In this document: piece after piece, positions 2,975 to 53,561 of the stretch
Position numbering within the stretch: position 1 is the stretch's first letter
Layout of the letters: the number at the start of each line of letters is the position of its first letter
Source of the DNA: a virus
Taxonomy: Duplodnaviria; Caudoviricetes
Virus record (IMG/VR): IMGVR_UViG_3300026863_000036
Location: 1 to 62,013 of that record
Length of the DNA stretch: 62,013 nucleotides
Reading direction: 5' to 3' (one strand)
Position numbers and translations under genes: made by a program
The notes under the pieces: model-generated
Database searches by the model: none
What the model was told of the DNA's origin: nothing
What the model saw: only the letters and a program-made list of their open reading frames with translations

Positions 2975-2988
2975 TGGTAGCGGAGGAG
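2975..2988. repeat. Prophage left att core TGGTAGCGGAGGAG
   Basis: Exact 14-bp direct repeat of 42144..42157, the reverse complement of the tRNA-Met 3' end. Confidence 0.9.
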
Positions 2989-3057
2989 CGCTACCGAGGA
3001 TTACCCCAGCCGTTCACCTCCCGTTTGTTTACGAAGCTACGGCGAACCGCGGGTAAC

Positions 3058-3081
3058 AAAACCCCGCCGGTTGGGGCGGGG
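3058..3081 (-). terminator. Rho-independent terminator at the prophage left end
   Basis: Minus strand CCCCGCC-CCAACC-GGCGGGG-TTTT. Confidence 0.7.
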
Positions 3082-3126: not shown

Positions 3127-3681
3127 TCAATCGGGCTTGTCCGCCTCCGATTGCTCTTCGGCTGGAGTTTTCTCTTCCTCGCGAGCCCATCTCCGGCTCC
3201 AGTAGAAATTACTTACGATAAGGCTGTCCTTGAGGAGGTGCACCCCTTGGAACATCTCGTGCTCCCCTAGGACCTCCTGAGTGTGTTGGTCGACCAACCG
3301 TGAAGCCGCTACTTGCAGAGCGCCGCGGTGGATCATTAGTTCAGCTTTGATGCGCTCAGGGTATCCGGACATCGATAGCTGTTTGTTCGCCTCCTGCTCG
3401 CGATCGTCGGCCCATTTGTCAGGGTCGAAATGCGGCGGATCCAGGTTTAGGAAGCGGCGATACAACTTCTGCTTCGGGTAATGGCCGAGGACCTTTCGGT
3501 ACTTCTCCAGTACGTCGAGGCACTGCAGCATCATGCCGGGAAGTTCGTCCGGCCGGCCGGCACCTCGAACCGTTCGCAGCACGTTGGCTGCAAGGATACG
3601 AAAGGGGTATTCGAGATCGCTCTCGGCTTGCTTCTGTTCAATCTGGGTTGAGGTTTGGCTGCTGACAACCTTGAGGGCCAC
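3127..3681 (-). CDS. Hypothetical moron protein
   Basis: 184-aa ORF, GGAG RBS, followed by a terminator. Confidence 0.7.
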   Translation of the reverse strand: MALKVVSSQTSTQIEQKQAESDLEYPFRILAANVLRTVRGAGRPDELPGMMLQCLDVLEKYRKVLGHYPKQKLYRRFLNLDPPHFDPDKWADDREQEANKQLSMSGYPERIKAELMIHRGALQVAASRLVDQHTQEVLGEHEMFQGVHLLKDSLIVSNFYWSRRWAREEEKTPAEEQSEADKPD

Positions 3682-4429: not shown

Positions 4430-4927
4430 TTACGTGCCCCAACCACCTTCGCCGAGTTCGCAAGCGATGCCGTCATTGTCGGCATCAAGATTGTAAGGAT
4501 CGTCGTAGGCGTTGATGTAGATGGGGCCGTTGACGAAGTAGGGGCCATCTCCGCCGCCGCCAGCGCAATCGTAATCCACCGATGCACTGCGGTAGCTGGG
4601 GGCGTTGTAGCCGCCGCCGCTGCACCCGTTCTGACAAGCGATTCCGACGCCCACAGCCGTCGCCACGAGCGCTGTCGCGACTAACACGCCGTTTTCAGCC
4701 TCAACCTTCTTGCGGCATACCTCGGAGGTTAGCCCGCGCTTCTGCGCCTCCGTTGCAAGGTCGAAAGCAAACTGTTGGTTACCTGCCTGGTTGGCGTCGA
4801 AGAACGTGCGGCAGAGTTGCGTATCCTTCACCTTTGACGCGTCGGCGTAGAATGTTTTGGAAGATGCGGCGCAGTCCGATACGAGTGCGCAGGCCGAAAA
4901 AACGGCCAGAATACTGTGCAATTTCAT
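4430..4927 (-). CDS. Exported/lipoprotein with Excalibur-like Ca-binding C-terminus
   Basis: Signal with Cys; DYDC...DPYNLDADNDGIACE. Confidence 0.65.
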   Translation of the reverse strand: MKLHSILAVFSACALVSDCAASSKTFYADASKVKDTQLCRTFFDANQAGNQQFAFDLATEAQKRGLTSEVCRKKVEAENGVLVATALVATAVGVGIACQNGCSGGGYNAPSYRSASVDYDCAGGGGDGPYFVNGPIYINAYDDPYNLDADNDGIACELGEGGWGT

Positions 4928-7255: not shown

Positions 7256-7452
7256 CTCGGAATGAACCCGCGCCGCTGCAGCCAGCTCTTGCCGCGCTGC
7301 GTGATGTGGCAGCGCTTCTTGTCCCCACCCATCACCAGGCGCTCATCCCATAGGATCTGAAACTCGGGGCGGTCCTCGATCGGCGTGCCGACCTGCTTGG
7401 ATAGCCGGATAAGTTCGGTGACCGCGATTTGAGGGAGTTCATAGTCCTGCAT
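7252..7452 (-). CDS. Small hypothetical protein, paralog of 1..198
   Basis: Near-identical protein at 1..198. Confidence 0.8.
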   Translation of the reverse strand: MQDYELPQIAVTELIRLSKQVGTPIEDRPEFQILWDERLVMGGDKKRCHITQRGKSWLQRRGFIPS

Positions 7453-7471
7453 GACCGCGACTTAGCAGATT

Positions 7472-7864
7472 CTAAAGCAGTGCCACCTGACGCCGATAAT
7501 ACCGTTTCATCACTCTGGGAGTGTGAGGACTGGCCAGAATTCCAGAGCAAACCCGGTCGAAGACTGGTCCTGCCATTGAAGCCTCGGCAATGAACAGCCC
7601 CTTCTCAAGGCCGCTGATGAGCGTGGCGGCGAGTTCCGTCTTGGCTTTGCGATACATAACCCACGACTTATGTGTCAGCCAATCATGATCACCGACATCA
7701 AGGATGCAGCTTCCGTCGCAAAGGTTGTTGGTCCACGAAGTGACCGAGACGATCAACTGCAAGTTGGCGTCGCACGGGTCGGTGCAGACAACGTGTAGAT
7801 GTTTGCGGCCAGCATTATGCAGGGGCCCAGACGGGATAAGAAGAGTACCCGCCTTCTGAACCAA
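7472..7864 (-). CDS. Putative toxin partner of the Panacea antitoxin (possibly PemK/MazF-like)
   Basis: Abuts the antitoxin stop codon; SGP..KHLHVV...SCILDVGDHDW. Confidence 0.55.
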   Translation of the reverse strand: MVQKAGTLLIPSGPLHNAGRKHLHVVCTDPCDANLQLIVSVTSWTNNLCDGSCILDVGDHDWLTHKSWVMYRKAKTELAATLISGLEKGLFIAEASMAGPVFDRVCSGILASPHTPRVMKRYYRRQVALL

Positions 7865-18918: not shown

Positions 18919-19296
18919 CTATTTCTGGACGCGAGCGATGAGCGTGCCGCTGGCGAGGTCGAGGGTGCCGCTGGACTCATTCTGGAACCGGACGGACACT
19001 GTGTTCGCGGCGCTGACCCACGCCGTGATGGTGATGCCGGATGTGGTCGCCGAGAACGCGGCGGATGCGAAGTCGCCGAGCGCCGCACCTGGTACGGTGA
19101 CCGTTGTGGTCGTGCCGGCGCCGTCGGCGAGGCTCGGCGGGTCGTAGTTGGCGGAGCCTTGCAGCGGGATCAGCTCGCCGATCTTCTGCGCCAGCTGGTT
19201 CAGCCAATCGTACCAGTGCTTGGACATGGTGCCGTCTGACGCCACCAGGTGCTCACTGGGTCGCGGGATCGGCCGCAGACTGTCGGAAGTGCTCAA
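18919..19296 (-). CDS. Virion structural protein
   Basis: Position after the gp10-like gene. Confidence 0.55.
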   Translation of the reverse strand: MSTSDSLRPIPRPSEHLVASDGTMSKHWYDWLNQLAQKIGELIPLQGSANYDPPSLADGAGTTTTVTVPGAALGDFASAAFSATTSGITITAWVSAANTVSVRFQNESSGTLDLASGTLIARVQK

Positions 19297-20711
19297 GCCG
19301 CGCGCTCCTCAATGTCCATGGCGGCCCCGAAGAAGGCGATCTCGACGGGGTCGGAGATCGTCATTTCCCAGATCCGACCGTTGCGACCAGTCAAGCCGGC
19401 GTTGTTGATGTCGATCGGCACAACTTCCCCCTGGGTGCCGAGCCGCCGAGTTACCGGATTGCCCCAGTTCCGCCCGCCATCGTTGGACCAGCGGATGCGC
19501 ACGACAGGCTGTGTCTCGATCGGGGAGATACCGGCATCGAGGCCGACGCCCGTCTCGAAATCGAAGCTGGCCTTGTGGATCACGGCTCGGCCGGGAAAGC
19601 GGTGCGCCTGGTTGGAACGCAACGTCCAGACCAGCGGGGCCTCATCGTCCAGCTTGGTGGCGGAGCCAAACTCATAGGCGTTGCCGCTCTGAAGATCGAA
19701 GGTGAACCAGCGGCCCCAAGCGTTGACACCGTACCGGCAGCGCCAATCATCGAAGCTGTAAGTCTGCCGCTCGTGCCAGTTGCCGGTGGACACGTCATAG
19801 ACCCACGTCCAGCCGGGACCACTGAGCACCCAATAGGCATGGCCCGCGGCCTGATACACCCACGCGATGAGATCGGCCGGGTTGGCGACGGCCTCGATCA
19901 GGCGGTTGAGGTCAGGTCCGGAAACCGGGACTGGGTTGTAGCCCTGCAGCTTCCGCACCGTGTTGTCATTGGCGACAAACAGCACCGTGTCGGCAAAGCC
20001 AGGTTCGAACCCGGCGACGGCATATGGTCCCTTTAGGCCCACGGGCACGACCACGCCGCGATTGAAGGCGAAGGCGGTCGGATTGCCGGCGTTGGCATAG
20101 AACTCGAGCGAAGCCGTTCCCATCAGGATCAGGTCACTGCCGGCAGCGATGGCGCGGTAGAGGCCGTCTGGGTCCGACTCGGCGGCGGTGCGGTCTACCG
20201 ATGAGAACGTCGTATCGTTGATACCCGACTGGTAGGCCAGACCGCTTTCCGACGTGACAATGAAGTAGCCGTCGATGAAGCAAATCGAGTTCACAGCCGG
20301 CAGGTCGCCGTCGCTGAAAACCGCGACGGAGGCACCAGAAATGTTGATGGATGACATGCCGCCCGAATGGACGATCAGCACGTCGGGAACAGGCGCTTTC
20401 ATATTGCGCGCCATCGTTACCGGCCCGCTGCCGCCAACGGTGCCGGTTAGTTCGGTGACCACATAGGCGCTGGTGATCGAATAGGCCTTGTTGCCCGAAA
20501 CCACGTACATCACGCTGCCGACCATGATCGCGCCGCGGATCGCGGTCTGCGTGGTGGTGAAGCGCCGGATAAGGCCGGCGACGCGGCGCCACACGATCTC
20601 GCTGCGGGATCCCTGCGCCGCCTTCTCGGCAAAGGCATTGATCAGCCGGCCGCCGGTTTCGGTCGGGTTGACGCCTGGCGCTGTGCTGGTGGGCCAGTTG
20701 ATCGGCGGCAT
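19293..20711 (-). CDS. Packaged-DNA stabilisation / tail hub protein (P22 gp10-like)
   Basis: AESDPDGL, TWVYDVSTGNWHER, WSNDGGRNW. Confidence 0.85.
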   Translation of the reverse strand: MPPINWPTSTAPGVNPTETGGRLINAFAEKAAQGSRSEIVWRRVAGLIRRFTTTQTAIRGAIMVGSVMYVVSGNKAYSITSAYVVTELTGTVGGSGPVTMARNMKAPVPDVLIVHSGGMSSINISGASVAVFSDGDLPAVNSICFIDGYFIVTSESGLAYQSGINDTTFSSVDRTAAESDPDGLYRAIAAGSDLILMGTASLEFYANAGNPTAFAFNRGVVVPVGLKGPYAVAGFEPGFADTVLFVANDNTVRKLQGYNPVPVSGPDLNRLIEAVANPADLIAWVYQAAGHAYWVLSGPGWTWVYDVSTGNWHERQTYSFDDWRCRYGVNAWGRWFTFDLQSGNAYEFGSATKLDDEAPLVWTLRSNQAHRFPGRAVIHKASFDFETGVGLDAGISPIETQPVVRIRWSNDGGRNWGNPVTRRLGTQGEVVPIDINNAGLTGRNGRIWEMTISDPVEIAFFGAAMDIEERAA

Positions 20712-21934: not shown

Positions 21935-23137
21935 TTACTGGTTGGCGACGCCCGATACGAAACCGGTCACCATGCCCCAGTCGACCAGCGAGCCGATGGT
22001 GGCCGATGCGCCGGCCGCCAGCGGAGCCTTTGCGATCTTGCCGACGCCGTACTGGGCCTCGATGCCCATGCCGGTGACGAAGTCGTAATCGCCATCCTCG
22101 AGGGTCGTCGGGCGCGGCATCTGCCCGAGGGCATAAGCAAGAGCGCCCTGGCCGCAGAGGAACACCGGCTCGACATCGATCCCCGCGGCGCCGGCGCCCT
22201 TCAGCAGCAGGCGCTGGGTGATCTCGGGGATCTCGAGGTAGATGACGCCGTCGTAGACCAGAGCGCCGCCCGTGAAGATCGGGTTGGTCTTCGTCGGATC
22301 CCCGCCTTCGCGGTTGCGGGCATCGCGGTTGGCCTGAGACATGACCGGGTCAACCTTGAGGTCGCGGAAGCCGCGCGCGCCGACGAAACAGACATACCAC
22401 TCCTGGTCGCTGTCCGCTTGCATGTACGGGGTGATCTTCGGCCGGCCGTTGTAAACGCCCGGGTTGTTGGGATCGACGCCGGTCTGCTTCGCCTGGTCCT
22501 TCAGAAGGCTGCCGACAGCCGCCGACATCTTGTCGGCAGTGGAGTCGACGTTGCCGACCGCGGTGGCGAAGGTGGTCGAGTAGTTCGACAGCGCCGAGCC
22601 GAACACGACGCGATCGGCATTGGCGGTGACCCACGAGTTCTTGTTGCCGGCGGTAGCCGCCGACCACTTGATGCCGTTGACGCGGTTGCCCGGGGTGCCG
22701 AAACGCCCCGCCTGCATGGCAGCCGACGGAATGGACAGCAGTGCGTCAACCAGGTCGTCACGCACGATGCGCTTGGACCAGCCGCGGAGCAGGCTGCGGG
22801 CGGTCGACCGGACCGAGAACGAGGACTCCTTGTTCTGGGCGCGATTGTTGGCGACGGCATTACGAGCCCAGTCGGCCCAGAGCGGCATGCCGTAGCTGTC
22901 GATCTGTTCCTCGTTGCCGCGCAGCGTGCCTGCGCCGACGCCATCGCCCGAAAGCTGGGTGACAAGCGGAACGCGGATTTCCTTGCCGTCGGCCTCGAGG
23001 TCCGACATGCGAACGATGACCGAAGTCGAGTCATCGCCCATGTAGGGGTCAAAGCGCGAGCTGCGCAGGAAGTCGAAAGCGACATCCTTGCGGAACTTGA
23101 CGACTTCGTTGTTGGGATGGTTCGGAGTGAGAGCCAT
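21935..23137 (-). CDS. Major capsid protein (DUF4043/N4-gp56-like)
   Basis: LRGNEEQI, DWARNAV, NPIFTGG...YDGV; follows scaffold. Confidence 0.85.
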   Translation of the reverse strand: MALTPNHPNNEVVKFRKDVAFDFLRSSRFDPYMGDDSTSVIVRMSDLEADGKEIRVPLVTQLSGDGVGAGTLRGNEEQIDSYGMPLWADWARNAVANNRAQNKESSFSVRSTARSLLRGWSKRIVRDDLVDALLSIPSAAMQAGRFGTPGNRVNGIKWSAATAGNKNSWVTANADRVVFGSALSNYSTTFATAVGNVDSTADKMSAAVGSLLKDQAKQTGVDPNNPGVYNGRPKITPYMQADSDQEWYVCFVGARGFRDLKVDPVMSQANRDARNREGGDPTKTNPIFTGGALVYDGVIYLEIPEITQRLLLKGAGAAGIDVEPVFLCGQGALAYALGQMPRPTTLEDGDYDFVTGMGIEAQYGVGKIAKAPLAAGASATIGSLVDWGMVTGFVSGVANQ

Positions 23138-24121: not shown

Positions 24122-26077
24122 TTACTGCTGTGGCGCCTGCGGGGCGTTCGCCCTGGCGGCAGCGGCCCGAAGGTTGATGCGCTGGATCGCCAGTTTCATC
24201 TGGTCGCTCTGAAGGTCCATGGCGTGATCCTCGCGGCGGGCCTGCTGGTCCTGCTGGCGTCCGACGGCATCGAGCATGCGGTTCTGCTGGTCAGCCTGAT
24301 GCTCGGCGCCGATATCCTGCGCCTCCGCCCTGAGCTTGATCGTCTCTGCCTCGGTCTTGCTGTTCTCGAGCTGCTTGCCCCGCATTTCCAGCATGGCGGC
24401 CTGCTGCTCGATCGGGTTCGGCTGCGGCGGCGGCTGCTTTATGGCCTCGCGGAACTTCTTCTTCGCCGCTGATGGCATCGAGGAGGTCTCGATCAGCACC
24501 TCGACCGCGGCGGCCGCAACGGACGGCGTCAGCATCGGGCCAACCGACTGCAGTGCCTCGCGCACCGACTCGTTGGTGTCCGCCTGCATGGTCACGGTGT
24601 CCGGGCCTTCGTCGATCATCACATCGACATCGAGCGAGCCGAGTTGGTTCGTGATCATCGACTGGCCGGTCTGCGGGTCGATCGCCAGCCGGTTGACCGA
24701 CAGCCAGTTGGCCAGCCCTTCATCATCGGTGACGCGGATCCATCGCTCGGCAGTCCAAAGGTTCTGCACGGCGTTCCAGATCGCGCGGTAAACTCGATGC
24801 TTCCAACCCTTGTAGCTGAGGAGGTAGGGCCCGAGTTCGGCAATGCCGGCTTCCTGCTGCAGCTTGATGGCTCGGCCGGACATGTCTTGCACGCCGGTGC
24901 CCATCAGCGCGGGGTTGAAGCCGTAGTTCTCGATCTCCTGCTTTGCCTCCTCGAGGAAGCCGAGATTGGCGTTCAGCTCCGAAGCGCGGGCCGCGTCGTC
25001 AAACTCGGGCATCTCGGCGCCGATCGGGACGACAACCACGCCATCTGGGCGGGCCATCTCGGCGCGGATTTTCTCCGGCTCCAGCCCTTGGCCATCGCGG
25101 ACGACGATGCGGCGCGCCTGGCTCTGGTGCAGTCCCTTGGACCGGCGCTGGTTGATTTCATCCTGCGCGGATTTCATGTTGCGGAAAAAGCCGTAGCGGT
25201 CGCCATCGTGGTCGACGTTGGCCGAAAACATGATGTACTTGCAGATGGTGTGGCGCTTCTCGTCGACGAGGTAGCTCTCACCCTCCGCCAGCATCGCGGC
25301 GCCGGTGTAGATGCACCAGAACCACTTGGTGCCGCGCTTGTACCAGTGGTCGATCACGCGAACGCGGCGATGGTTCTCATCGCCCATTACCCACTTGTTG
25401 TCGCTGTCCGGGTTGCTGGTAAGTTCCGACCCCTGATCAACCGAGAACTCGATCTCGTCCTTTTTGTCGGGGAAGGCGTCGAGCAGTTCGTTCATGTCCG
25501 CCCACTTCCCGATGCCCATAAAGCTGGCATCCGAGAAATCGGCGCGGGTCGATGTCGGGTCGTAGAAGAAGCCCGAGGGCTCGACGATCTCGAAACCTAC
25601 TTCGGTATCGCCCAGGTCGCCCGCCTCGAGGGTAAGCTCAATGCCGGCGATACCATCGACCGCACCGTTGAGCCCGGCAATAGGCGACTTCTCGGCCCAG
25701 CGCTGCTCATCGAGCACATAGCGCAGCACGGCCGTTGCCACCTCGGCGCCGTCCTCATGCTTGGGTGTGCGGGCGAATCCCTTCGGGTCCTGGCGCTGGC
25801 GCTCGAGCAGACCGACGACGGCGTTGATCTTCCGCGCCATACGATTGTACGTGACCACTGGCTGCTTGCGCTGGTTGAGCGTCTTGATCTGCTTCGCCGT
25901 CCAGTGCGAGCCGTGGTAGTAGCGCCGGGCTTCCTGCTGCTCGTCGATCTCGGCGCGCTTGCCGTCGAGGTAGCTCAGATAGTCCGTCTTGAGCGTCGAG
26001 AGCCCACGGCCACCACCCTGCGGCTGAGCAGGGGCGGTCGAGGCGGCCGGCGCTGGCGCGTATGCGGTATCGATCAT
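24122..26077 (-). CDS. Portal protein (P22-like)
   Basis: RYYHGSHW, QDEINQRRSK, SGRAIKLQQEAG, LDVDVMIDEGP. Confidence 0.88.
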   Translation of the reverse strand: MIDTAYAPAPAASTAPAQPQGGGRGLSTLKTDYLSYLDGKRAEIDEQQEARRYYHGSHWTAKQIKTLNQRKQPVVTYNRMARKINAVVGLLERQRQDPKGFARTPKHEDGAEVATAVLRYVLDEQRWAEKSPIAGLNGAVDGIAGIELTLEAGDLGDTEVGFEIVEPSGFFYDPTSTRADFSDASFMGIGKWADMNELLDAFPDKKDEIEFSVDQGSELTSNPDSDNKWVMGDENHRRVRVIDHWYKRGTKWFWCIYTGAAMLAEGESYLVDEKRHTICKYIMFSANVDHDGDRYGFFRNMKSAQDEINQRRSKGLHQSQARRIVVRDGQGLEPEKIRAEMARPDGVVVVPIGAEMPEFDDAARASELNANLGFLEEAKQEIENYGFNPALMGTGVQDMSGRAIKLQQEAGIAELGPYLLSYKGWKHRVYRAIWNAVQNLWTAERWIRVTDDEGLANWLSVNRLAIDPQTGQSMITNQLGSLDVDVMIDEGPDTVTMQADTNESVREALQSVGPMLTPSVAAAAVEVLIETSSMPSAAKKKFREAIKQPPPQPNPIEQQAAMLEMRGKQLENSKTEAETIKLRAEAQDIGAEHQADQQNRMLDAVGRQQDQQARREDHAMDLQSDQMKLAIQRINLRAAAARANAPQAPQQ

Positions 26078-26085
26078 CGATTGCC

Positions 26086-27624
26086 TCAATAGCTTTGCCA
26101 ATCGCCCGGCGTTGCCCTGTCGGTCTTCATCGAGTAGCCCGACCTGTTCTTGCCGGCGTCGTCGGCCGGCTTGTTCCGAACCCATGGCCGCGACATGCAG
26201 GCGTACCGCCACTCATCGGCCGCGTGGTCTTCCATGTCGCTGTTTAGGTCTTCCGGCCTCGCCTCGTCGTGCTGCAGCATCGGGATGGTCCGGATGCTGT
26301 CGGTGCAGGTCGAGAAACAGTAGATCATCGGCCGTCCGTCGGGGTCGGGCTTGCCGTCCTCGTTGATCGTGGTCCCGACCAGGCGCTGGCGCATCATGTC
26401 CCAGCCACCCATGGCGCCGCGCTGCGACACGCGCTTGTTGTCGGCGCCACGGAAGAAGATCTTCTTGTCGCCCGAGCCCTCGACAATGCGGCTGGCAATT
26501 GAAGGTCCGCCATCCTCGGCGAACGCCGCCGGATCGAGCACGCCAAGGCCGACTTTCTCGGTCTCGCGCTGCGCCAGTCCCTTGCCGACCTGCTCCGCCG
26601 TGAGCTTCAGGCCCTTGTTTGGTTTGCCGGGCTCCATGCCGTACCATTCTCGGTACCGGATTATCGCGCCGCGGGGCAGCAGCACGCCCGAAACCGGGTG
26701 CCTGGTGTCATCGCCGACGATCGCCCACCAGCCGAACGAGAACGGCTTGGCGCTACCCCAGTCGCCGGAACGGAACTTCGCCCAGTCCTCGGGGATCTGG
26801 AACGGCTCGATGACGTGCAGGCGCGACGACCAGCAGTCGAAGAAGGCACCGTCAACGATATCCCAGTCGCCGTAGCGCATGGCGCGGACCAGCGCTTCGG
26901 AGCCGAGGCCGTTCAGTCGGTTTTCGTAGTCCGGGTCTTCCTCGATGATGGTCGGGTTGTCCTCGAGCCGCGCCGGGATGTACTGGCGCAGCATGCCTCC
27001 CTCAGTGGCACCCACACGGCTGGCTACGAGTGGGAGCTGACCGTCGATGAAGGTGGCCTTGACGAAGTGGTGACCCACGCCGCCCGGGTTGGCGCCACAG
27101 AGAATGCGCGGGAAGCTGCCGCGGTACTTCGCCGGCAAGGTGACGCCCGTCATGCGGACGCGATTGCGGAGGAACCGGTAGATCACCTCGGTGAAGTGCG
27201 TCAGCTCGTCGATCAGCAGGACGTGGATTTCCGCGCCCTGGTACTTGAAGCGGTCTTTCTCGTCCTTGCAGTGGCACAGGTAGATTTTCGAGCCGTTCCA
27301 GAACCGGATTTCGTCCTCGACGATCTCGACGAACCCGCATGCGACCCAGCCTGCGAGCAATGCCCGGAAGCCGTGCGGCCCTTCCATGTGGTTCTTGACC
27401 AGGTCCTCGCGGATGCGACGGAACAGGTAGACCTGCAACCCGGGGATTTCGGCGCACCAGCTGACAGCCGCCTGGCGCATCAGGTGCGACTTGCCGCCGC
27501 CGGCAGCGCCGCCGTAAAGGATTTCCGTGGCAGGCGAGAGGAAGGCCAGCCACTGCTTGGGGTGAAGGTCGATACGCAACTCGGCGGCCGCGAGGATCGA
27601 CGAGCTACTGGATTGTATGCCCAT
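26086..27624 (-). CDS. terL: Terminase large subunit
   Basis: Walker A GGAAGGGKS, Walker B LLIDE, nuclease DWG and DHAADEWRY. Confidence 0.93.
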   Translation of the reverse strand: MGIQSSSSSILAAAELRIDLHPKQWLAFLSPATEILYGGAAGGGKSHLMRQAAVSWCAEIPGLQVYLFRRIREDLVKNHMEGPHGFRALLAGWVACGFVEIVEDEIRFWNGSKIYLCHCKDEKDRFKYQGAEIHVLLIDELTHFTEVIYRFLRNRVRMTGVTLPAKYRGSFPRILCGANPGGVGHHFVKATFIDGQLPLVASRVGATEGGMLRQYIPARLEDNPTIIEEDPDYENRLNGLGSEALVRAMRYGDWDIVDGAFFDCWSSRLHVIEPFQIPEDWAKFRSGDWGSAKPFSFGWWAIVGDDTRHPVSGVLLPRGAIIRYREWYGMEPGKPNKGLKLTAEQVGKGLAQRETEKVGLGVLDPAAFAEDGGPSIASRIVEGSGDKKIFFRGADNKRVSQRGAMGGWDMMRQRLVGTTINEDGKPDPDGRPMIYCFSTCTDSIRTIPMLQHDEARPEDLNSDMEDHAADEWRYACMSRPWVRNKPADDAGKNRSGYSMKTDRATPGDWQSY

Positions 27625-29457: not shown

Positions 29458-29546
29458 GGCATAGCTTCGCTTTACGCGGGGAGTGCCCTCTCCCCCGGAT
29501 CGGTAGCGCCTCAGCATCGTGGCTGGCGTCTGATCACCGGTCGTCC
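29458..29546 (-). repeat. ~90-bp structured element, copy B (candidate late-leader RNA)
   Basis: About 90% identical to 2471..2561; foldable hairpins. Confidence 0.85.
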
Positions 29547-34175: not shown

Positions 34176-35117
34176 TCATGCTCCCTGATCCTGGCGCTGG
34201 CGGAGCACGTCGTTCCAGTCGGTGGCCAAGTCGGGCGGGACGGTGACCTGCACCGTGCGGGTCTTGTCGCGACTGAGCCGTTTGCCCAAGGCAAAGGCGG
34301 CCGCCTGCCCAACGCAGTTCAGATCGGCATCGCCGAACACCACGATTTCGTTCACGCCCTCCGGCGGTTGCCACGCCTCGAGGCGGTTCTCATTGAGCGC
34401 GGCCCACACCGGCAGGTTGAACAAGCGAGCGGCTGCCAGCGCGGTTTCAATGCCCTCGGCGATGCCGAGCACCTTGTCGTGATGGGCTAGGCGTATGGCG
34501 CCCCCGTCGGGCAGGGCGCCCGTGTTCCACCTATCCGGGTCCAGCCCTGCCTTTTGCCCGTCTAGGGTCAGGAACGTGCGCTGCACACCCGCCAGGTCGC
34601 CGTGCACGTCCACATAGGCCGAGACCAGCGCCGGGTAAGTCGTGCCGCTGAACGGGGTCGCCGGGATGAACTTCAGAGCTCGGGTTGGCTGATAGGTCCC
34701 GACACGATTCCGAAGGTACAGATCCACGGGGTCGCCGGCGGTGATGCGCTTGCCCGACCGCCAGAACGCCTGCGCTTCGGCGAACTTCTCCGCCGCGTCC
34801 TTCTGCGGCTTGACGGGCTGTGGCGGTGCTGGGTCGGTCCCGATGATCTTCTCAACCTCGGCGGCCATCTGTGCGAATGCCCAGCCCCGTAGGTCCATCA
34901 CCAGCTGCATGCCGGTGCGCGCGCCGCATTGGCCGCAGATCGAGGTGCCTTGCCCCTGCAAGTCGTCGAATCGCCAACGATCTTTACCGCCGCAGATGGG
35001 GCAGGGGTGGTGCTTCCCGTCGAGATGCCGGTTGTCGACGCCGAACTGGGGCAGAATGGTCTGCCAGTGCCCTTGGGCGCGGTCCTTCAATGGGGTGCGG
35101 TCATGCTGCATTTGCAC
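34176..35117 (-). CDS. Primase (Zn-finger + TOPRIM)
   Basis: CPICGGKDRWRFDD, IAEGIETAL, FGDAD, DWND. Confidence 0.9.
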   Translation of the reverse strand: MQMQHDRTPLKDRAQGHWQTILPQFGVDNRHLDGKHHPCPICGGKDRWRFDDLQGQGTSICGQCGARTGMQLVMDLRGWAFAQMAAEVEKIIGTDPAPPQPVKPQKDAAEKFAEAQAFWRSGKRITAGDPVDLYLRNRVGTYQPTRALKFIPATPFSGTTYPALVSAYVDVHGDLAGVQRTFLTLDGQKAGLDPDRWNTGALPDGGAIRLAHHDKVLGIAEGIETALAAARLFNLPVWAALNENRLEAWQPPEGVNEIVVFGDADLNCVGQAAAFALGKRLSRDKTRTVQVTVPPDLATDWNDVLRQRQDQGA

Positions 35118-36576
35118 GCTCCCGCTTTTCCATGCCCTTGGCGAACGCGATGGCCTTGGCCTTCACGTAGTTGCGGCAGAACACGTCGGGCTCCATCGGT
35201 CTCGCCGAGAGCCCGCGCGGCCAGACGCCGAACCGATCCTTATAGGTGTGGGAGGCCCAGCCTTCGGACTTGCCCCTCTGCTGCACATACCAAAGCAGAC
35301 CAGACCAGAAGCGCTGTTTCTCCGCCTGGGTGTAGCTCCGCCCCTTCCCGCCCAGCTGGTGCAGCTCGCCGTCGACCGTATCGACAGCCTTGCGTAGCAC
35401 TGGTTCGAATCCGCACGCGGGGCATTTGTGGACGCCGGCCGGCTTCACGTAGCTGCAACCGGCTGCGGGGCACTCGGTCGGCAGCTTCTGCTTGCTTTGC
35501 GGCCTCGTGCTCGAACCTTCTTCCGGCTTCCCGGTATCCAGATGCTCGTGGTGAATGTCGGTCACGAAGCCAAGCTTCAGCGTCGTGTCGGAGTGGTCGA
35601 GGATCAGCGCGTCTTCTTTGCCGGCGGCGGTGCGCAGCGCCCGGCCCACGATCTGGACGAACAACTTTTCCGACTTGGTCGGCCTTGCCAGGATCAGGCA
35701 GCGGACGTCCCAGTCGATGCCGCGCGTCAGCACCCCGACGTTCACCACCACCTTGATGCGGCCCGCGTTGAAGGCCTGGCCTATCTTGTTTCGGTCTTCG
35801 CGCTCGGTGAAGGCGTCGATGTACCCCGTCGTGATGCCAGCGTGCTGGAATTCTGCCTCGAGCGATCGGGCGTGCGCCCGGTTGACCGCGAAACAGAAGG
35901 TTGGCCGGTTCTCACCGATCCGCATCCAGGTTGAGACCACGTCGGCAACCAGCTGCGGCTTATCCATCGCCGCTGCGAGCTCGCCCTCGTGGTAGTCCCC
36001 ACCGACGGTGTGAACACCCTTCAGGTCGGGGTGGGCCGGGGCGAAGACGCGGAACTTCGACAGGTAGCCGCGTTCGATCAGGTCTTTCGTGGTTGCGGCA
36101 ATCAGCAGGTCGTCGTAGTGGCGGCCGAGACCCTTCGACCAGGGTGTTGCCGACAGCCCGATGAAGGGGATCGACTGGCGCTCAGCCATCCACCGGAAGA
36201 TGACTTTGTGCATCTCGTGCGCCTCGTCGTTGAGCACGAGGTCGACCCACGGGAATTGTCGCTTCACCAAGCTCTGGACGCTGCAGACCTGCACGGGCTT
36301 GGTGTGGTCGGTCAGCGGGTGGTCGGCCTGCATGACGCCGATCTCGGTGATGCCCTCGGCGCCGAACTCTTCCACTGTCTGGTCGATGAGAGAGATCGAG
36401 GGCACCGTGAAGGCGACCTTCTTGCCCTTGTTCAGGGCGTTGCGGATGATCTGGGCGGCGGTAAGGGTCTTGCCGAAACCGGTAGGCGCCATCAGCATCG
36501 GCCGGGTGTGGCCGGTCTTCAGCGAGGCGCGCAGTAGGTCGATGGCGGCGTGCTGGTGGTCGTAAAGCTGGCGCAT
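35101..36576 (-). CDS. SF2 DEAH helicase
   Basis: PTGFGKT, DEAH, LSATP, QIVGRALR, C-terminal Zn ribbon. Confidence 0.92.
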   Translation of the reverse strand: MRQLYDHQHAAIDLLRASLKTGHTRPMLMAPTGFGKTLTAAQIIRNALNKGKKVAFTVPSISLIDQTVEEFGAEGITEIGVMQADHPLTDHTKPVQVCSVQSLVKRQFPWVDLVLNDEAHEMHKVIFRWMAERQSIPFIGLSATPWSKGLGRHYDDLLIAATTKDLIERGYLSKFRVFAPAHPDLKGVHTVGGDYHEGELAAAMDKPQLVADVVSTWMRIGENRPTFCFAVNRAHARSLEAEFQHAGITTGYIDAFTEREDRNKIGQAFNAGRIKVVVNVGVLTRGIDWDVRCLILARPTKSEKLFVQIVGRALRTAAGKEDALILDHSDTTLKLGFVTDIHHEHLDTGKPEEGSSTRPQSKQKLPTECPAAGCSYVKPAGVHKCPACGFEPVLRKAVDTVDGELHQLGGKGRSYTQAEKQRFWSGLLWYVQQRGKSEGWASHTYKDRFGVWPRGLSARPMEPDVFCRNYVKAKAIAFAKGMEKRERANAA

Positions 36577-47300: not shown

Positions 47301-50300
47301 CTTCAAGATGATCATCGAACCCAGAAAGCCAGCGCATTGTGCTCGCGTCGGCGACGTAGAACGAAACACTCTCTGCAAGCCGGTTCAGTAGGCCGACGCG
47401 ATGCAGGGTCACGAGTTCATTCGGTTCAACCTCGAACTCGAGAGGAAGGTTGAGGGGCGGTCCATCCGCGACGGGATCCAGCGACAGTTCTGCCTTGGCC
47501 CGCTCGGCAAGTTCGCGATCCATGCCGTGCGCGACGAGGTGGGCGAGAAGGACATTGAGTGAAACGTGGGTGGGATCCTCTCCCTGAGGCGTTATGACCA
47601 ACCGGCGAACTCGAGCGTTTGAGCCGGAGCTGGCGAAGCGCCCCGCCTCCAAATCGCGTCGGATGTCGTGAGCTTCATCGGCCACATGTCCGAACTGCTC
47701 CTCGAGTTCGATCTCCATCGTTCGCAGGAGCTCGGGGGTCTCATTGGGTAAGAGCATGCGCGGCCAGGCATGCTCGAGGTGCTCGAGCAGTCCGAGCTCT
47801 TGGCCCAGCAGCAAGGCGGTTGCGTCAAGCACGAGGAGGCCGCTTGGGGCGGTGGTCTCCACTTGACGTATGCCAGCTCGGAGCAGGAAGGGCTTGCCAA
47901 CGACAGTGCCGTCGTCCTGCAACCTCGGGCGTGCCCGAAAGGCCCGGTGAAAGAACCATGCCAAGTCGGTCGCGCGGCCATCGAAGACGAGGTGTAGCGG
48001 TATTTCACCGCGGAGCCACTTCTCGGTCAGCGCGGCGTCCGCTTCCTGTATCCGGGCAGCATTGCTATTGGCGAACTCGATCGCCTCCTCGACGCTGTTG
48101 AGGACTGTGATGCCTGATGGTGGGGCGTCAGGACCGAATAGGCGCGGCATGATAGCGTTGGCGGCGGCCCGGAGTCCCAGTTCGTTGACGAGCGTAAGAG
48201 CCTGCGGCAGCAGCTTGCGGTTCAGGTTGCCAAACGAAATACCCGCCAGTAGATCTTTGGCCAGTTCGGGATCTTCGTAGCGAAGTTCCGCAGCGATCTT
48301 GAGCAGCGCTTCCGGGCTGCCGTCTGGCGTCTTCCTGCCGCGAAGGACTGACGCAGCCCCTGTCACATCGCCGATCCTGAGACGCATCAATGCGTCTTCG
48401 AATGCCAGCTCGTTGCTGCTGTCGTTGGCACGCATTTCCTTGAATGCTCGCAGCGCCAGTGCAGCGTCACCCAGCGAGAGTTGCGACTTTGCGAGTAGTA
48501 CGCCCAGGGTCACGGGCAATCGCGATCCATAGAACGTGTCGGCAAGCTCGGTGGCCAGCGAGACCACATCCTTGTGGAGGCTGAGGCCGAACGCGGCTCG
48601 TATGACTATCTCGGAAGCCTCTGAGGTGCGGAATGCGAGGAGCGTGGAACGCCGGTCGTTGATCTCGATCCACTTACCGTTCAGCGCGAGGTTCTCGAAA
48701 GCGGCTAGCTGCATGTCGGGATCGAGCGTCCCAGTGTCCAGCATCTCGAGCAAGTCGGTTGGATTGCCCTTGGTCCTGAGCTTACCAAGTGCGGCGTTGA
48801 ACTTTTGACTTCGACTGTCGCCGCCCTTCCCACCCAGTAGAGCAATCCAATAGTCGACCAACTTCAGGTCCAACTCATCACTGAACAGCTTCCGATGCCG
48901 CTTGAGGGCCGAGAGCGCCCGATCCTTCGCGCCGCGGGTAAAAGTAAGATAGGCGATGGCAACTGCGTGGGAAGCGTCGGCGGCGCCTGAATTCAGTCGG
49001 CTATTCAGCGCTCGCACGACATCGTCCTGATCGAACGCTAACCCCGCCGCAGTAGCCCATACCACTGCACCTGGGTGGGGATTGTCGCCCTCGAGCAGGG
49101 CCGCTGCGAACTGGCCCGCATCTGTCGACCGGCCTGGGTTCAGGATCAGGCAAGCCAGCCGCCATACCCGCAGGTCAGCAGCTTGGTCAGGGGTGTCGAC
49201 GGTGCGCGACAGTATGTCGAAGATGCGCTCAGCCTCGTCGAGGGCACGCCGAGCGTCCTCGGTTTCGCGGACCAATCCCTGCGGAATAGGGTTGGGAAAC
49301 GTGGAAAGCGTTGGGGCGAACTTGCCGCTCAAGGCAAAGTTGAACCGAACCACCGCGGCTGCCCATTGTACAGCGAACTGTCGCGGCGCGACATGCTCGA
49401 CCCTCGAGATGGTCGCCAAGGCTCCGGGTCTGTCCTGCCAGAGTTGTGCTATCGAGCGGAGCCGTGCTGGCTCATAGGCATCATCTGTCGGCGAGGTGTT
49501 CGGCCATACGTCCAGAACTCCGAGCGCCTCATCTGGCTTTTCAAGCTCTAGAAGGAGCCCGGTGCGGATGCTCGCTTCAGAAGAGGTGGCCGGGTTGCAC
49601 ACGAGCTCGAGTGCGGACGCTGGACCGACCTCCAGCCGAGCCACCAGAACCGAAGGTGTACGATCAGGCGGCGGTGAGTAGACGGCGGCGTCGGCGTAGC
49701 ATGCCTTAGCCGACGCGAGGTCGTTGTCTCTGATGGCAAGCGAGCCTTCGGCGCGAAGGAACTTCGCCTTGATATCGTCCGCTAACGCGTCCCATGAGAT
49801 ACGATCGGCCTTGAGCTCCGCTACTAACGAACGCAGGGGTCTCGCAATGCCCTCATGAAGGTTCTGAAGTGCGGTTTCGAGCCGATCGGCCGTTGCGCTG
49901 CCGAGGCGTTGGCGCACGGCATCAGCGACACCATTTAGCGATTGCGTGACGGCAGCGGTCGCGATCGAGTTCGCGGTTGACGTCCCAGGGCTCGGCACCG
50001 CCGTCGATGCAACAAGTCCCATGCCGGCCCCGACTCTCTCCAGCCAGCCGGCGGGGAAGAACCTGACGATGGTGTGGGGCAGGGGCCGAAGCTTCTCGGT
50101 GAGCTTCTTGAGACCCCAAACTTCGTAGCGAATGCCTAGCGCCCTGAACCGGGCGCTCTCAAGCGTTATCTGGTCGTTTAGGCCGTCGTCATTGAGGTCG
50201 ACGGAGACCGCGAGGACGAAGCGTTCGACGCCCTTGTCTTTCCAGTGGCCCCCGACATGTTTGAGGAAATCGGTGCTCCAGATGGCAAGATCGCTTGGCT

Positions 50301-50577
50301 GAATCTTCTTGTAGCGTTTGCAGGAGATGACCAGCACTGGCTGCTGTTCGTCCGAGAACCCCTCAACGTCGACGCCATATTGCGCTACGCCGGTGGTGCG
50401 CTTGAGCTCGGCGCGAACGATGCCAGGTTCTTTGTCGGCAATGTCGGAGAGGATTTCCTCAAGGTCTTCATCATGAACCGCGAAGCACGGGAGCCGATGC
50501 TGATTAGGGTCCGGCGGACGCGACAGGAGATCCTGGTCCGGTTGTCCTTTCTCTGTCTTCGCCGTCTTTCGGGCCAT
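44392..50577 (-). CDS. 2061-aa REase-fold + TPR-like + PIN-like protein
   Basis: QYGVDV...ISCKRY, long helical repeats, LVLDATALLL and IWAEDR. Confidence 0.7.
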   Translation of the reverse strand: MARKTAKTEKGQPDQDLLSRPPDPNQHRLPCFAVHDEDLEEILSDIADKEPGIVRAELKRTTGVAQYGVDVEGFSDEQQPVLVISCKRYKKIQPSDLAIWSTDFLKHVGGHWKDKGVERFVLAVSVDLNDDGLNDQITLESARFRALGIRYEVWGLKKLTEKLRPLPHTIVRFFPAGWLERVGAGMGLVASTAVPSPGTSTANSIATAAVTQSLNGVADAVRQRLGSATADRLETALQNLHEGIARPLRSLVAELKADRISWDALADDIKAKFLRAEGSLAIRDNDLASAKACYADAAVYSPPPDRTPSVLVARLEVGPASALELVCNPATSSEASIRTGLLLELEKPDEALGVLDVWPNTSPTDDAYEPARLRSIAQLWQDRPGALATISRVEHVAPRQFAVQWAAAVVRFNFALSGKFAPTLSTFPNPIPQGLVRETEDARRALDEAERIFDILSRTVDTPDQAADLRVWRLACLILNPGRSTDAGQFAAALLEGDNPHPGAVVWATAAGLAFDQDDVVRALNSRLNSGAADASHAVAIAYLTFTRGAKDRALSALKRHRKLFSDELDLKLVDYWIALLGGKGGDSRSQKFNAALGKLRTKGNPTDLLEMLDTGTLDPDMQLAAFENLALNGKWIEINDRRSTLLAFRTSEASEIVIRAAFGLSLHKDVVSLATELADTFYGSRLPVTLGVLLAKSQLSLGDAALALRAFKEMRANDSSNELAFEDALMRLRIGDVTGAASVLRGRKTPDGSPEALLKIAAELRYEDPELAKDLLAGISFGNLNRKLLPQALTLVNELGLRAAANAIMPRLFGPDAPPSGITVLNSVEEAIEFANSNAARIQEADAALTEKWLRGEIPLHLVFDGRATDLAWFFHRAFRARPRLQDDGTVVGKPFLLRAGIRQVETTAPSGLLVLDATALLLGQELGLLEHLEHAWPRMLLPNETPELLRTMEIELEEQFGHVADEAHDIRRDLEAGRFASSGSNARVRRLVITPQGEDPTHVSLNVLLAHLVAHGMDRELAERAKAELSLDPVADGPPLNLPLEFEVEPNELVTLHRVGLLNRLAESVSFYVADASTMRWLSGFDDHLEGQALAGKVKALRELVAKKANSGTWGFLPVDLSKRDGLREMGASGRLFFSLIRAGEREPCEIWAEDRTLSLVGKLEQATIIDVRTVLGRISHRLSEPQVAGAWKRLRAAGYGFTLPANEAIVDALLSTATEGAVLVESDELAAIRRDFAVQFANSRHLIDKASVAAPTEPELLFLSRLLGLAGKVLAALWSRSNVGDERLSAAATWVARHLRVDQAKFLPRENRSVAGREGLLYLQHLSLVGSMFNVTGSSLRQSRERRSKLLEWVLGSIVEPALELHPTFRERLINYFADALASLGELDSDQPDVTENILAGVVLDYINAFPEHWRVALQRHEKLSHLVGLRELKNVSIGKNFTFEAAEFYAAVAEAYANGKATAPMMGGKRSAVITRIYDAVPAADKPVAFMVKAGSKTVNFADDRLELETSDIEQRLRALKRHPSWFDQGGTELEAAARSIAENPDPNARRQLLGNAQDKAMTWRLKTLQEQIRQRSSSDKALLLPPHPDSVRQFLRLASPIDVSGQDWLDQSFTKLREEVGPLGALARIGGLPFELGGAIEKALLDAVDEVGLDEALHLAGPTPMVRTGLFAALLRAGKTELDLSGLTLPWNDHGVLFQSLLRLAFRGASRSYDWGNVPEPERSILLWTHSNAVLEILAGEGAAPREAARIIDSFMNQRIDDVYRRSRSHASRLLDPAGNSWRETAGAGIAYAIRDCASSELDNGQRDQLRTTVARQVGNDWLVELELWVPKGSVEPPGCWLAIDAAAPLAEAGIAALPSPIDERDPRKMASLLQQRIVDEAVAEEASGYWPVLWMLGVDELDAEASARMNDLIGSPDRLPDFDAQDGGVWAGALRYRGELYGVDDNVDGFRQTLIAAAEQARANHPGERVSELSIKSSIVTTFHRVGEAIWQFSSASSSTLVGCSTRFAESIIVLADAWPESLLACLALLEVIAAQLDTEPAGPLWDAINLLRSR

Positions 50578-50920
50578 CGTTACCGTCGAGCAAGCTCCGG
50601 CCTGCGATCCACGCAGGTGGTCGCCGGAGGTAGGAGAAGTCCTGAGATATGCTGATTCCCGCAGGAGCGATAACGCAGCGCTACTCTACCCACACGCTGC
50701 ACGATTTGCTTGCCGTCACGTCTGTCCTGCCGCACACGACAACAACGTGAGGAATAGTCTGACAGTCACCTGAACATCACGGATTCCAGGATCGCTGACG
50801 GTATGGCACAGAGCTGGACTCCACCTCTTTACTTTCGAGAGGCCGGACGCGGTAGACACCGTATCAATGTACGGTCTTGGTGCGAACCAGCCTCTCGGAG
50901 AACGCAACCCGGTCTGCCGC

Positions 50921-51619
50921 CTACCAGCCCGAATAGGCGGCAACCACGCGAGCCCAATCGCGCAACATGCCAGCGCGGCGGAGTTCCGCAATAGCGTCGA
51001 CCGCGAGCCAGCGACGAGGAAGCTTCCGCATCCATAAATTGTTGTCGTCGCCTGCGTAGAGCCAAATGACGGTGGCAAGCAGGATCTTGCGCGGCCGAGG
51101 GAGGCTTCGGAACTCTTTCTGCCACTTCAAGACTTCAGCGTCGAATTCCGCCTTGTCGCCGCCGATGTCCGGGGTGCTGTAGCCACGCGGCCGGATCCTT
51201 CCGAGATCATCATGCCCGTCGGCGTCCTCGAAGAAAGGGACTAGGCCGTGATTGCCGAGCACATCCCGTACAATCCGAGCATAGGCATCCCGCTGGGACC
51301 AGAAAGGCGGGCGAACATCGGCTCCCGCCACTTCCGCCAAGGCAAGGGCTTCGTCAGAATCCATCGACCACCGCTTTGTCACGACGGTACGCATCTCAAC
51401 GCGGGCGAACTTCAGTTGAGCCGCGACGGGATCGATCAGGGTCGCCGCGACGGCGATAACGGGCAGCTTGGTGTGGTGGACGTAGCTGTGGACGAAAGTC
51501 CCGTAGTCGACCGACATCGCACCGCCGTCGGTTACCTGAATGCCGGCGGTGCGCAGAGTATTGATGGTGCTGGCAGAGAGCATGGCCGCGAAGCCACTGT
51601 TAGTTTGAGCGTAGTTCAT
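50921..51619 (-). CDS. Hypothetical protein
   Basis: GGAG RBS, Trp-rich C-terminus. Confidence 0.7.
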   Translation of the reverse strand: MNYAQTNSGFAAMLSASTINTLRTAGIQVTDGGAMSVDYGTFVHSYVHHTKLPVIAVAATLIDPVAAQLKFARVEMRTVVTKRWSMDSDEALALAEVAGADVRPPFWSQRDAYARIVRDVLGNHGLVPFFEDADGHDDLGRIRPRGYSTPDIGGDKAEFDAEVLKWQKEFRSLPRPRKILLATVIWLYAGDDNNLWMRKLPRRWLAVDAIAELRRAGMLRDWARVVAAYSGW

Positions 51620-51732
51620 AGAGGTCTCCAGATTCGAATGGCGCAAACGGCCGTCCCAGCCGGCAATGCCGAGCTAGGGTCGCGGACGCCGACGACCGCC
51701 GGCATCCGCGCAAGTCAGAGATGTCGGGGTCC

Positions 51733-52176
51733 CTAGCGAGGAACGACCAAGAAGGTGCCTTCAGTGCCCGCCTCGTTGAGGAGGAGCATGTTATGGGGAT
51801 CCCACGACAACACGCCTTCATGTTCTGGACGCCGGCCGCCGAACGCCGGCAACTCCTCGAGGTCGATATCGAACTCACAATCGAGACCGCACTCTTCAAG
51901 CAGGTTCAGGCTATCAACCAGGTCGGCCAGATCCGTCGCCAGGTCGACACGGAGAACAAGATAGTCGATATCGACGTCGAGACTCCCATCAGGTGCCACG
52001 ATCCAATGATCGTCCACGCCGGCGGCGATTGCAGAAGCGAGTTCGGTCGTGATGCTTACGGCCTTGGAGCTTGAGGGCAGACCGTCCAAGTCGCTTGCGG
52101 CTGCAAGAGCTTCTTCGGGCGTGCTACCAACAGCGCTGAGATGACCATCGACGATAACTGAGTACATCCGCGGCAT
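51733..52176 (-). CDS. Acidic hypothetical protein
   Basis: 147-aa ORF. Confidence 0.6.
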   Translation of the reverse strand: MPRMYSVIVDGHLSAVGSTPEEALAAASDLDGLPSSSKAVSITTELASAIAAGVDDHWIVAPDGSLDVDIDYLVLRVDLATDLADLVDSLNLLEECGLDCEFDIDLEELPAFGGRRPEHEGVLSWDPHNMLLLNEAGTEGTFLVVPR

Positions 52177-52833
52177 CAGATTGCCCCCGGCAGGCAATTT
52201 ACGGCGCCAGCCGCGCTGGAGCGGTGGCCGCACCGTACAGAGTACGAAGCGGAGTGTGGGGGTTCAGTGAAGTTATTCATTCTACGGTGCATGCAAAGGT
52301 TCCTTGGCCAGCGCCGGAGGGGCGCCATATGGTTGATACGAGGTCGGGGGGCTTTTTCGCCAATGGGGATGCCACCGCAGCGAGGCGTTGCAGTCTTTTC
52401 TAGTCCGCCGGTCGTAATCAGCGCCAGTGCGGTTAGGTAAAGAGAAATCTGGACTGCGGATTCGTTCAATGGACAAGTCAGGAACGTAGTTAACGAAATT
52501 TCGATTGCTAGTCAGCTGGCGACGATAGTGCCACTGTGGTCCCGCCACTGCGCGATAATAGAAGATTATCACGCAGTGGCAGCTACCCAAGAAAGAATAC
52601 GAGAAAAGGGAACTGAACTCGATTTCAGTTCCGTGACGCCGCGGGCGACGGGGACTTGGGTTGCGGCAAGACCCTCCAGCCGGTCAGCAACAAGGACGCC
52701 ACCGCCTCAGCAGGATGCAGCTGCACGTGGTGTGCCCGCGATCTCGCGGGGGCGGGCTCCCGGCTGCCGACCACCAATCCACTCCCTTCTGGAGGCCGCG
52801 CCGTGAGGGGCATGGAGCCGCAAGGCACCCATT

Positions 52834-52848
52834 GTTCTCCATTTGTTC
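52834..52848. promoter_or_regulatory. LexA (SOS) box
   Basis: GTTC-TCCATTT-GTTC upstream of 52890. Confidence 0.8.
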
Positions 52849-52889
52849 TGGATGCTACTCTTCTCGTCCGGTCCGCGACGGAGATCCCA

Positions 52890-53177
52890 ATGTACCGCCA
52901 ACCCCTCACGACTCCCGGAAAGGCCCCTGAGCCGAAAGCCCAGAAGACTAAGTTGATCGTGCTGCTCGCCTTCGACCGAGGCGAGGACGGTGAGTTGCTG
53001 CCATCGTTCGAACCGCGCGAAATGCCAGACGAGCGCCGCGCGATTCAGACCGCGCGGGAAATGGCCACCCGACATCCCGGCGTCATCGCCTGGTCCCGCG
53101 ACGCCAACCTCAAGGAGGGCGAGTTCGGCCCCCCTGTGGTGCTGTTCCAAGCTGGCGACGTGCCGGAGTTGGAGTAA
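52890..53177 (+). CDS. Hypothetical protein
   Basis: GGAG RBS; GVIAWSR...GEFGPPVVLF. Confidence 0.7.
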   Translation: MYRQPLTTPGKAPEPKAQKTKLIVLLAFDRGEDGELLPSFEPREMPDERRAIQTAREMATRHPGVIAWSRDANLKEGEFGPPVVLFQAGDVPELE

Positions 53178-53496
53178 TGGACCGCTTCCCTCGCTCCGTC
53201 CGCGAGTTCATCGAGCAGAAGCGTGTGGTGATCCTTGAATCGAGAGGTGGTGGCACAAGGCGCCGATCGATCTCAGCGTGCTCGAGCTCACCTTCGGCGC
53301 GGACTTTGATATGTACGCTTCGATGCGGTCCATGCGCGAGCAAGTGGGATGCTCGGCTTGCGGACATCCTCGTCCGGTGATCGAGTTCTACAACCCGAGC
53401 GCAGTGCACTTTCAGGACGTCAGCTTCGAGTACTCTGTGAAGAGTAGTCTAGAGTTCAGTGCCTACACTCGTGCGCGGGAGGCTTCGAACGGCTAG
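53177..53496 (+). pseudogene. Frameshifted zinc-ribbon gene
   Basis: Adding one base near 53241 joins MDRF...ILE to ERWWHK...CSACG. Confidence 0.6.
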
Positions 53497-53561
53497 GCGA
53501 GTATGAGCTGTGACTTTTAGATCGTCCAGCTCTGCCTGCCGCCGCGCTCGCGCCACCGGAG

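Follow-up and report, generated by a model that had tools for sequence, protein, structure and literature searches.

An attachment site inside an integrase gene is described for the Myxococcus phage Mx8, in which attP lies within the integrase coding sequence (IntP/IntX) and integration at a tRNA gene gives the integrase a new 3' end, with its activity altered but not abolished (Tojo et al. 1996, Magrini et al. 1999; PMC4383910, PMC6070905). The 2014 Islander database paper, in its passages on this point, names only the Mx8 and SSV integrases as extending across attP, and the same passages describe serine integrases as not known to target tRNA genes. In the SprA integrase of SPbeta, residues 530-545, including F532 and F534, are reported to lie at the hinge between DBD2 and the coiled coil and to contact the directionality factor (bioRxiv 10.1101/2025.01.03.631226). 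The extreme C-terminus of SprA is reported as essential for excision and largely dispensable for integration (Abe et al. 2021, via bioRxiv 10.1101/2025.01.03.631226). In phage BPs, a C-terminal determinant of integrase stability is described (PMC3694055). For the target considered here, the published passages describe phiPam-6 (vB_PamS_Pami6) of Paracoccus aminophilus as a temperate siphovirus-size prophage of 38.8 kb, which is inducible by mitomycin C, forms particles, encodes a serine recombinase and targets tRNA-Met (PMC3925955, PMC6536676). The literature searched yielded no account of a serine integrase in which integration alters the C-terminus.

Here we analyzed a stretch of 62,013 nucleotides (IMG/VR record IMGVR_UViG_3300026863_000036), called the window throughout. 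It holds a complete-looking temperate phage, which a large serine integrase has inserted at the CCA end of a tRNA-Met. The features needed to follow the comparison are these.

2975-2988: attL core, 14 bp, with the same letters as the attR core
2988-3056, plus strand: stored integrase tail, 22 codons followed by TAA
2989-42143: prophage body, with tail genes, portal, terminase, helicase, repressor and integrase among its contents
3061-3077, minus strand: terminator-like hairpin with a T-run, directly after the tail stop and serving the convergent gene
3127-3681, minus strand: first phage gene inside attL, 184 aa, without a family match
19293-20711: head closure protein
21935-23137: major head protein
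24122-26212: portal
26086-27624: large terminase
35101-36576: helicase
38308-39405, plus strand: CI-like repressor, with HTH_3 and a weak Peptidase_S24 match
40582-42165, plus strand: large serine integrase (phrog_95 integrase), integrated isoform of 527 aa, ending ...GSGGGI
42144-42157: attR core
42144-42192, minus strand: 3' half of tRNA-Met(CAT), from the anticodon arm to CCA, 49 nt
42381-43796, plus strand: tyrosine integrase of a second element, with matches to Arm-DNA-bind_3 and Phage_integrase, both below the Pfam cut-off

The prophage measures 39.2 kb when one core is counted, spans 39,169 bp from outer end to outer end and is bracketed by the 14-bp core pair. The core, TGGTAGCGGAGGAG, has two exact copies in the window, at 2975-2988 and 42144-42157; allowing up to one mismatch, there are 2 matches, and 0.07 are expected from shuffles. 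A repeat of 14 bp proves little by itself, since the window contains 35 maximal exact direct repeats of at least 14 bp. Such a number leaves room for a chance repeat, in which case the att sites would lie elsewhere and the 22-codon extension described below would be an artefact; the presence of two short phage-like segments in the left flank also fits misplaced boundaries. However, the core reads as the CCA end of tRNA-Met in reverse complement, here and in the relatives, and it matches the published phiPam-6 repeat.

The integrase classifies, by every sequence feature tested, as a large serine recombinase. PF00239 (Resolvase) is matched at residues 4-114 (E 5e-19), PF07508 (Recombinase, DBD1) at residues 168-281 and PF13408 (Zn_ribbon_recom, DBD2) at residues 298-353. 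In a 26-sequence alignment, S11 and R9 are invariant, and so are the zinc-ribbon residues C305, C308, C326 and C334. The ORF stays in frame across the right core and reaches its stop at 42163-42165, so that in the integrated enzyme the 22-residue tail is replaced by two residues read from the antisense of the tRNA. When the left core is read in the phase of the integrase, positions 2976-3053 give GSGG and then 22 residues, with TAA at 3054-3056. This stored tail is in frame with the integrase only once both cores are joined, which is the attP form, and because attP spans the last codons of the gene, integration cuts the integrase gene. The last 22 codons are parked 39 kb away at attL, from where they would rejoin the gene only on excision. 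The two frames support the view that lysogen and circular phage must encode different integrase C-termini. A sequence-only reading of the window had already placed the stop of the integrase, read through the right core, at 42165 and that of the joined form at 3054-3056; both frames were re-read with the same outcome. Its description of the right-hand sequence as tRNA-derived holds for the origin, which is tRNA-Met, and has to be narrowed in extent, as this is not a tRNA gene but only the 3' 49 nt of one.

On the phage side of attL, the ORF at 3127-3681 is convergent with the integrase in the circular form. Since the hairpin adjoins the tail stop, the integrase and this ORF converge on one terminator region in that form. 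The terminator scan found 1 site against a shuffle mean of 0.8, which by itself is weak evidence.

The right core lies within the tRNA fragment, for which the Rfam tRNA model gives 22.6 bits, under the gathering score of 29. No tRNA was found in the window by ARAGORN, and an intact tRNA-Met is absent from it. Contigs of other runs that carry these 49 nt run past 42192 into a complete tRNA. The contigs of runs with the same DNA break at the fragment 42144-42192, with neither an attP joint nor a loose end leading into the left end, and speak neither for nor against excision. To the right of the prophage, a second element spans 42144-62013; we read it as having split the same tRNA-Met near the anticodon loop, which makes it context and not part of the switch. 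It carries a minus-strand ORF of 2061 aa without a Pfam match (44392-50577), a protein with an Abi_C domain (58243-59142) and two metallophosphoesterases (53562-54128 and 59387-60202), a content that looks like defence-island cargo. In a relative with 73% identity (L004, 4567-4620), the integrase likewise adjoins no more than the 3' half of tRNA-Met, followed by DNA unlike the right flank of the window. A tandem of a serine-integrase phage and another element at tRNA-Met may be a recurrent arrangement. In the flank to the left of attL, positions 7-214 are similar to prophage-internal 7261-7472 (83% identity), positions 2471-2561 are similar to prophage-internal 29458-29546 (91% identity), and an HNH endonuclease ORF is located at 2549-2800. 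These phage-like segments and the HNH ORF may be what is left of an older, related phage at the same site.

Joining the two ends yields an attP of about 44 bp, in which two 19-bp arms stand in dyad symmetry about a 6-bp centre.

2989-3007: P' arm, with inner CGCTACC (2989-2995) and outer ATTACCCC (3000-3007), complementary to the arm in the integrase gene
42133-42151: P arm within the integrase coding sequence, with outer GGGGTAAT (42133-42140) and inner GGTAGCG (42145-42151)

A dyad of this kind is typical of a serine-integrase attP and arises only on joining both ends. The joined attP has complementary letters at 17 of 26 positions, against 11 of 26 in attL, 11 of 26 in attR and 12 of 26 in the joined attB. 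With the left half held fixed and joined to random window sequence, 1 of 5000 joins reached 17; with fully random joins, 0.3% of 5000 did. The crossover region is probably the last 6 bp of the attR core (42152-42157), which form the dyad centre. The same attP arm is read in two frames in two clades, giving GSGG-ALP... in one and VAEE-RYR... in the other. A relative with 71% identity (L005, 4553-4603; L089 is the same contig) shares these arms, but its 6-bp centre is turned round with respect to the gene. P0011, which looks like the integrated form of this variant, reads in sense through the end of the tRNA and on into its downstream flank. Since the centre is inverted in the former and the tRNA end is read in sense in the latter, the asymmetric centre appears to set the orientation; the inversion in this pair also indicates that members of the family insert in both orientations with respect to their integrase gene.

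We compared the C-terminal endings of the relatives, classing the best 120 of 1109 homologues with E <=1e-30. Endings encoded by the tRNA antisense occur in 79 of these best 120, namely ...EEG[FL]EPPTxGL in 66, ...GSGGGI in 10 and a form that reads on to ...IMIPLL in 3. Two of the best 120 end in ...RW, which appears to reflect a stop inside the core, so that no swap would take place, and the other 39 have other endings. Among 55 viral loci, 34 endings are tRNA-encoded, 8 are alternative tails, 1 is odd, 2 run off the record within the core and 10 belong to a remote clade (33-38% identity) with a conserved end of the G-R-W/Y-R-x-A-A type. The remote clade (L040, L042-L044, L047-L049, L051-L053) ends in hydrophobic-x-[LF]-G-R-[WY]-R-x-A-A, and this C-terminus resembles the tails of L028 and phage RR1-A. 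Wherever ARAGORN found a tRNA abutting the integrase stop in the 55 viral loci, it was tRNA-Met(cat) (12 of 12). A 13-mer core pattern is present in 20 of the 32 records examined. In a relative with 51% identity (L001), the integrase ends inside an intact tRNA-Met, and the record behind it (G001) has the core at the integrase end only.

Tailed forms were found by several routes. The relative P0003 is 84% identical to the window integrase, is 548 aa long and lies on a contig of 39,183 bp, near the 39,169 bp of the prophage; its tail matches the window tail at 17 of 22 residues. Scans with a degenerate core-plus-arm pattern returned 8 metagenome and 5 genome loci. Two loci, L093 and L097, have no integrase upstream and show the flank, the core, the 22-codon tail and then a convergent homologue of ORF 3127-3681, with 55% and 64% identity, respectively. 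The isolated Rhizobium phage RR1-A and an isolated phage deposited under the name Microcystis phage Mae-JY30 carry tailed forms across a similar dyad. In three proviruses (L028, L030 and L055), joining attL to attR gives tails of 17 to 26 residues. The search for attL covered the far-end 2 kb of 27 provirus records; in the remaining 24, it gave 4 short matches of 8-9 nt without a convincing tail and 20 matches of chance size or none, and these failures are probably due to imprecise record ends. A 20-mer of the core and inner arm matches 2 viral contigs, that of L005 and L088. In L088, the exact 20 nt are located at 4541-4560, and the 7.3-kb locus contains no integrase-like gene. The tail of L005, at 37 residues, is unrelated to that of the window, and the tail of P0010 is also non-homologous.

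These comparisons return us to the boundaries. The dyad is made by this join only, the natural 548-aa relative has the same tail, and the homologous attL loci keep the order of flank, core, tail and ORF 3127 homologue. We accept the core pair as att because its position, the dyad symmetry and the relatives support it, and consider a chance repeat with att sites elsewhere highly improbable. The claim of the sequence-only reading that lysogen and free phage encode different isoforms is borne out by the occurrence of both forms among database relatives, isolated phage genomes and proviruses. Comparison shows that the predicted tail swap is the rule in a large clade of alphaproteobacterial serine integrases with tRNA-Met as their target.

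To describe the tail in its structural setting, we used the AlphaFold2 model of P0003. The body has a mean pLDDT of 87.7 and contains long antiparallel helices at 361-408 and 414-438; the coiled-coil insertion in the zinc-ribbon domain is thus present in the model of this relative, 84% identical to the window integrase. Residues 521-548 have a pLDDT below 50, and no docking site is predicted for them. A complex test of residues 519-548 against residues 1-518 gave weak support, with a score of 0.41 against 0.00 for the best of 3 controls; contacts agree between runs to at least 44%, and the partner pLDDT is at least 44. Among solved complexes, 58 of 80 reach the mark of this test, as do 2 of 110 mismatched pairs; at scores of 0.60 or less, it is reached by 7 of the 80 solved complexes together with both passing mismatched pairs. 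We do not count the result for docking of the tail, because the 30-residue partner includes the end of a zinc-ribbon strand. A phmmer search of P0003 against PDB sequences matched catalytic domains only and gave no alignment of the tail to SprA.

The tail could also be a neutral by-product of the position of attP, that is, read-through codons without function whose likeness stems from DNA constraint on the attP arm and from recent ancestry. In DNA of 62% GC, chance alone would give a run-on of 20-30 codons, and the first 7 codons of the tail are the P' arm itself. In these codons, pS is 0.15 and pN is 0.14 between the window and L093; since the two are about equal and both low, codons 1-7 appear to be under constraint at the DNA level. 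Conservation of the arm is also partly ascertainment, because the search pattern fixed much of it. Beyond the arm, however, codons 8-22 show pS of 0.63-0.92 and pN of 0.23-0.37 in the 3 pairs of the window, L093 and L097, and the clade with the other frame shows a mean pS of 0.69 and a mean pN of 0.37 in 15 pairs from 6 loci, with samples of 3 and 6 short sequences only. Because synonymous sites beyond the arm are near saturation and the amino acids persist, the tail is under selection as a protein. It is kept at 12-17 of 22 residues, about like the neighbouring bona fide gene (55-64% identity), which also argues against read-through codons without function.

A motif within the tail bears on the same question. 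The count covers 37 tails, which are the 39 other endings minus P0053 (a fragment) and P0106 (no recognisable junction). The motif [PASLVMF]-F-x-[FYLIVW] is found in 22 of the 37, whereas 2000 shuffles average 6.1 and never exceed 13; its F lies at a median of 14 residues past the junction and 7 before the end. Both reading-frame clades reach a P-F-x-hydrophobic-E/D motif; such a recurrence, although the arm is read in two frames, is at odds with a neutral by-product. On the other side, the motif is absent from 15 of the 37 tails, 2 of the best 120 of 1109 homologues seem to end in the core, the tail of L005 is unrelated and the tail is disordered in the AlphaFold2 model. With both sides considered, a tail without function seems unlikely to us. 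The samples are small and consistent in direction, and by comparison they show a tail that is conserved, as judged from its codons, as a protein, with a P-F-x-hydrophobic motif and an Ala/Gly-rich end. Conservation in related prophages had been proposed as a check by the sequence-only reading, and the tail is indeed conserved, with purifying selection beyond the attP arm.

The extreme end of the tail points to another possible function. Of the 37 tails, 17 finish with Ala and 9 with Gly, far above the family backgrounds of 12% and 9%, respectively, and many tails end in two small or hydrophobic residues. Such ends, on a tail predicted to be disordered, would suit a C-terminal degron or stabiliser, which would set the lysogeny decision and the stability of the prophage, much as the C-terminal tag of the BPs integrase does. 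Two versions can be drawn: either the infecting genome makes an integrase that is quickly lost and the prophage one that lasts, or it is the other way round. In a BPs-type Int, a single C-terminal substitution is reported to stabilise the protein and to raise integration (PMC3694055). However, the window tail ends in ...NRG and not in the Ala-Ala type, and conservation is highest in the internal P-F-x-hydrophobic motif rather than at the extreme end. We therefore judge a stability tag to be rather improbable.

The reading that we prefer, tentatively and with somewhat less than even confidence, takes the tail for a flexible element by which the integration-stage enzyme is controlled; on this reading, the prophage form would serve for excision and be poor at re-integration, by analogy with IntP/IntX of Mx8. 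The tail is absent before excision; therefore, selection on it can act only in the circular genome, at or soon after integration. Prophages with this core do excise, as far as the published passages go, because the mitomycin-inducible phiPam-6 uses the same core. Since phiPam-6 shares the core and the prophage is without the tail before excision, the tail-less enzyme would be enough for excision. In the proposed course, the tail-less prophage enzyme, together with a phage directionality factor, would carry out excision, and the circular genome would then encode the full-length enzyme, efficient for attP x attB. The tail may act on the zinc-ribbon domain and the coiled-coil hinge that sets directionality in serine integrases, and the prophage form would re-integrate poorly.

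A stricter reading is that the topology of the gene hard-wires directionality. The full-length enzyme would integrate and the tail-less enzyme would only excise, integration would serve as a one-bit memory that reverses the bias of the recombinase, and the tail would resemble the SprA toggle; we consider this doubtful. As to the directionality factor, there is no family match for ORF 3127-3681 or ORF 40349-40585. The latter encodes 78 aa and runs 4 nt into the integrase ORF, over its start codon, a hint of translational coupling; it is a candidate accessory or directionality factor.

The swap matters as a built-in isoform change common to the relatives of the window prophage. Serine integrases are prized as genome-engineering tools, in which the direction is set by the protein and not by DNA topology. 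An input of the extreme C-terminus to directionality has become visible only recently, in SPbeta. The role of the tail is directly testable, since natural isoform pairs occur across a large family with an inducible, culturable member, phiPam-6. Lysogen-derived integrase sequences of this tRNA-Met family are truncated compared with the form that does the integration; thus, att-site and enzyme predictions made from prophages may test the wrong protein.

Finally, we compared the locus with the described systems. The 17-bp flanking repeat of phiPam-6 holds the window core on the opposite strand (PMC3925955). The relatedness of the two integrases is drawn from the shared core only, with an ORF crossing the core assumed, and the passages on phiPam-6 say nothing of two isoforms or of an ORF crossing att. 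BPs shares with the window prophage an attP within a gene and the removal of a C-terminal segment by integration, which in BPs alters how the protein behaves, as described in the passages at hand (PMC3694055). However, BPs cuts its repressor and has a tyrosine integrase, whereas the window prophage cuts its integrase. Its repressor ORF at 38308-39405 is intact, is not crossed by attP and lies 2.7 kb from the core, so the analogy to the BPs repressor switch drawn by the sequence-only reading fails on its defining feature.

The likeness to SprA lies in a large serine integrase with a short C-terminal segment, which in SprA is reported to carry an F-x-F pair near the end and to have a part in the control of directionality. 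In SPbeta, however, the element is always in the protein, as attP is located between sprA and sprB. Moreover, the SprA element is needed for excision, whereas the window prophage has only the tail-less form for its excision. The polarity is opposite to the one proposed here, and the SPbeta analogy may not transfer for that reason. SprA shows that an F-x-F tail can act on directionality in serine integrases, and we take it as a lead rather than as a homology.

In Mx8, as in the window, the crossover site is inside the integrase ORF and the isoforms differ at the C-terminus. The Mx8 Int is a tyrosine recombinase, whereas the window enzyme has the features of a large serine recombinase, and its attP is a simple dyad of about 44 bp. 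The target of Mx8 is tRNA-Asp, and its replaced segment is much longer. The window integrase matches the logic of Mx8 but, as a serine recombinase, is not a member of its family. In summary, the placement of attP in the integrase gene is already known, and here it is found in the tRNA-Met-targeting large serine integrase of a full-size temperate phage; the closest precedents are IntP/IntX of Mx8 and the C-terminal element of SprA rather than the repressor of BPs.
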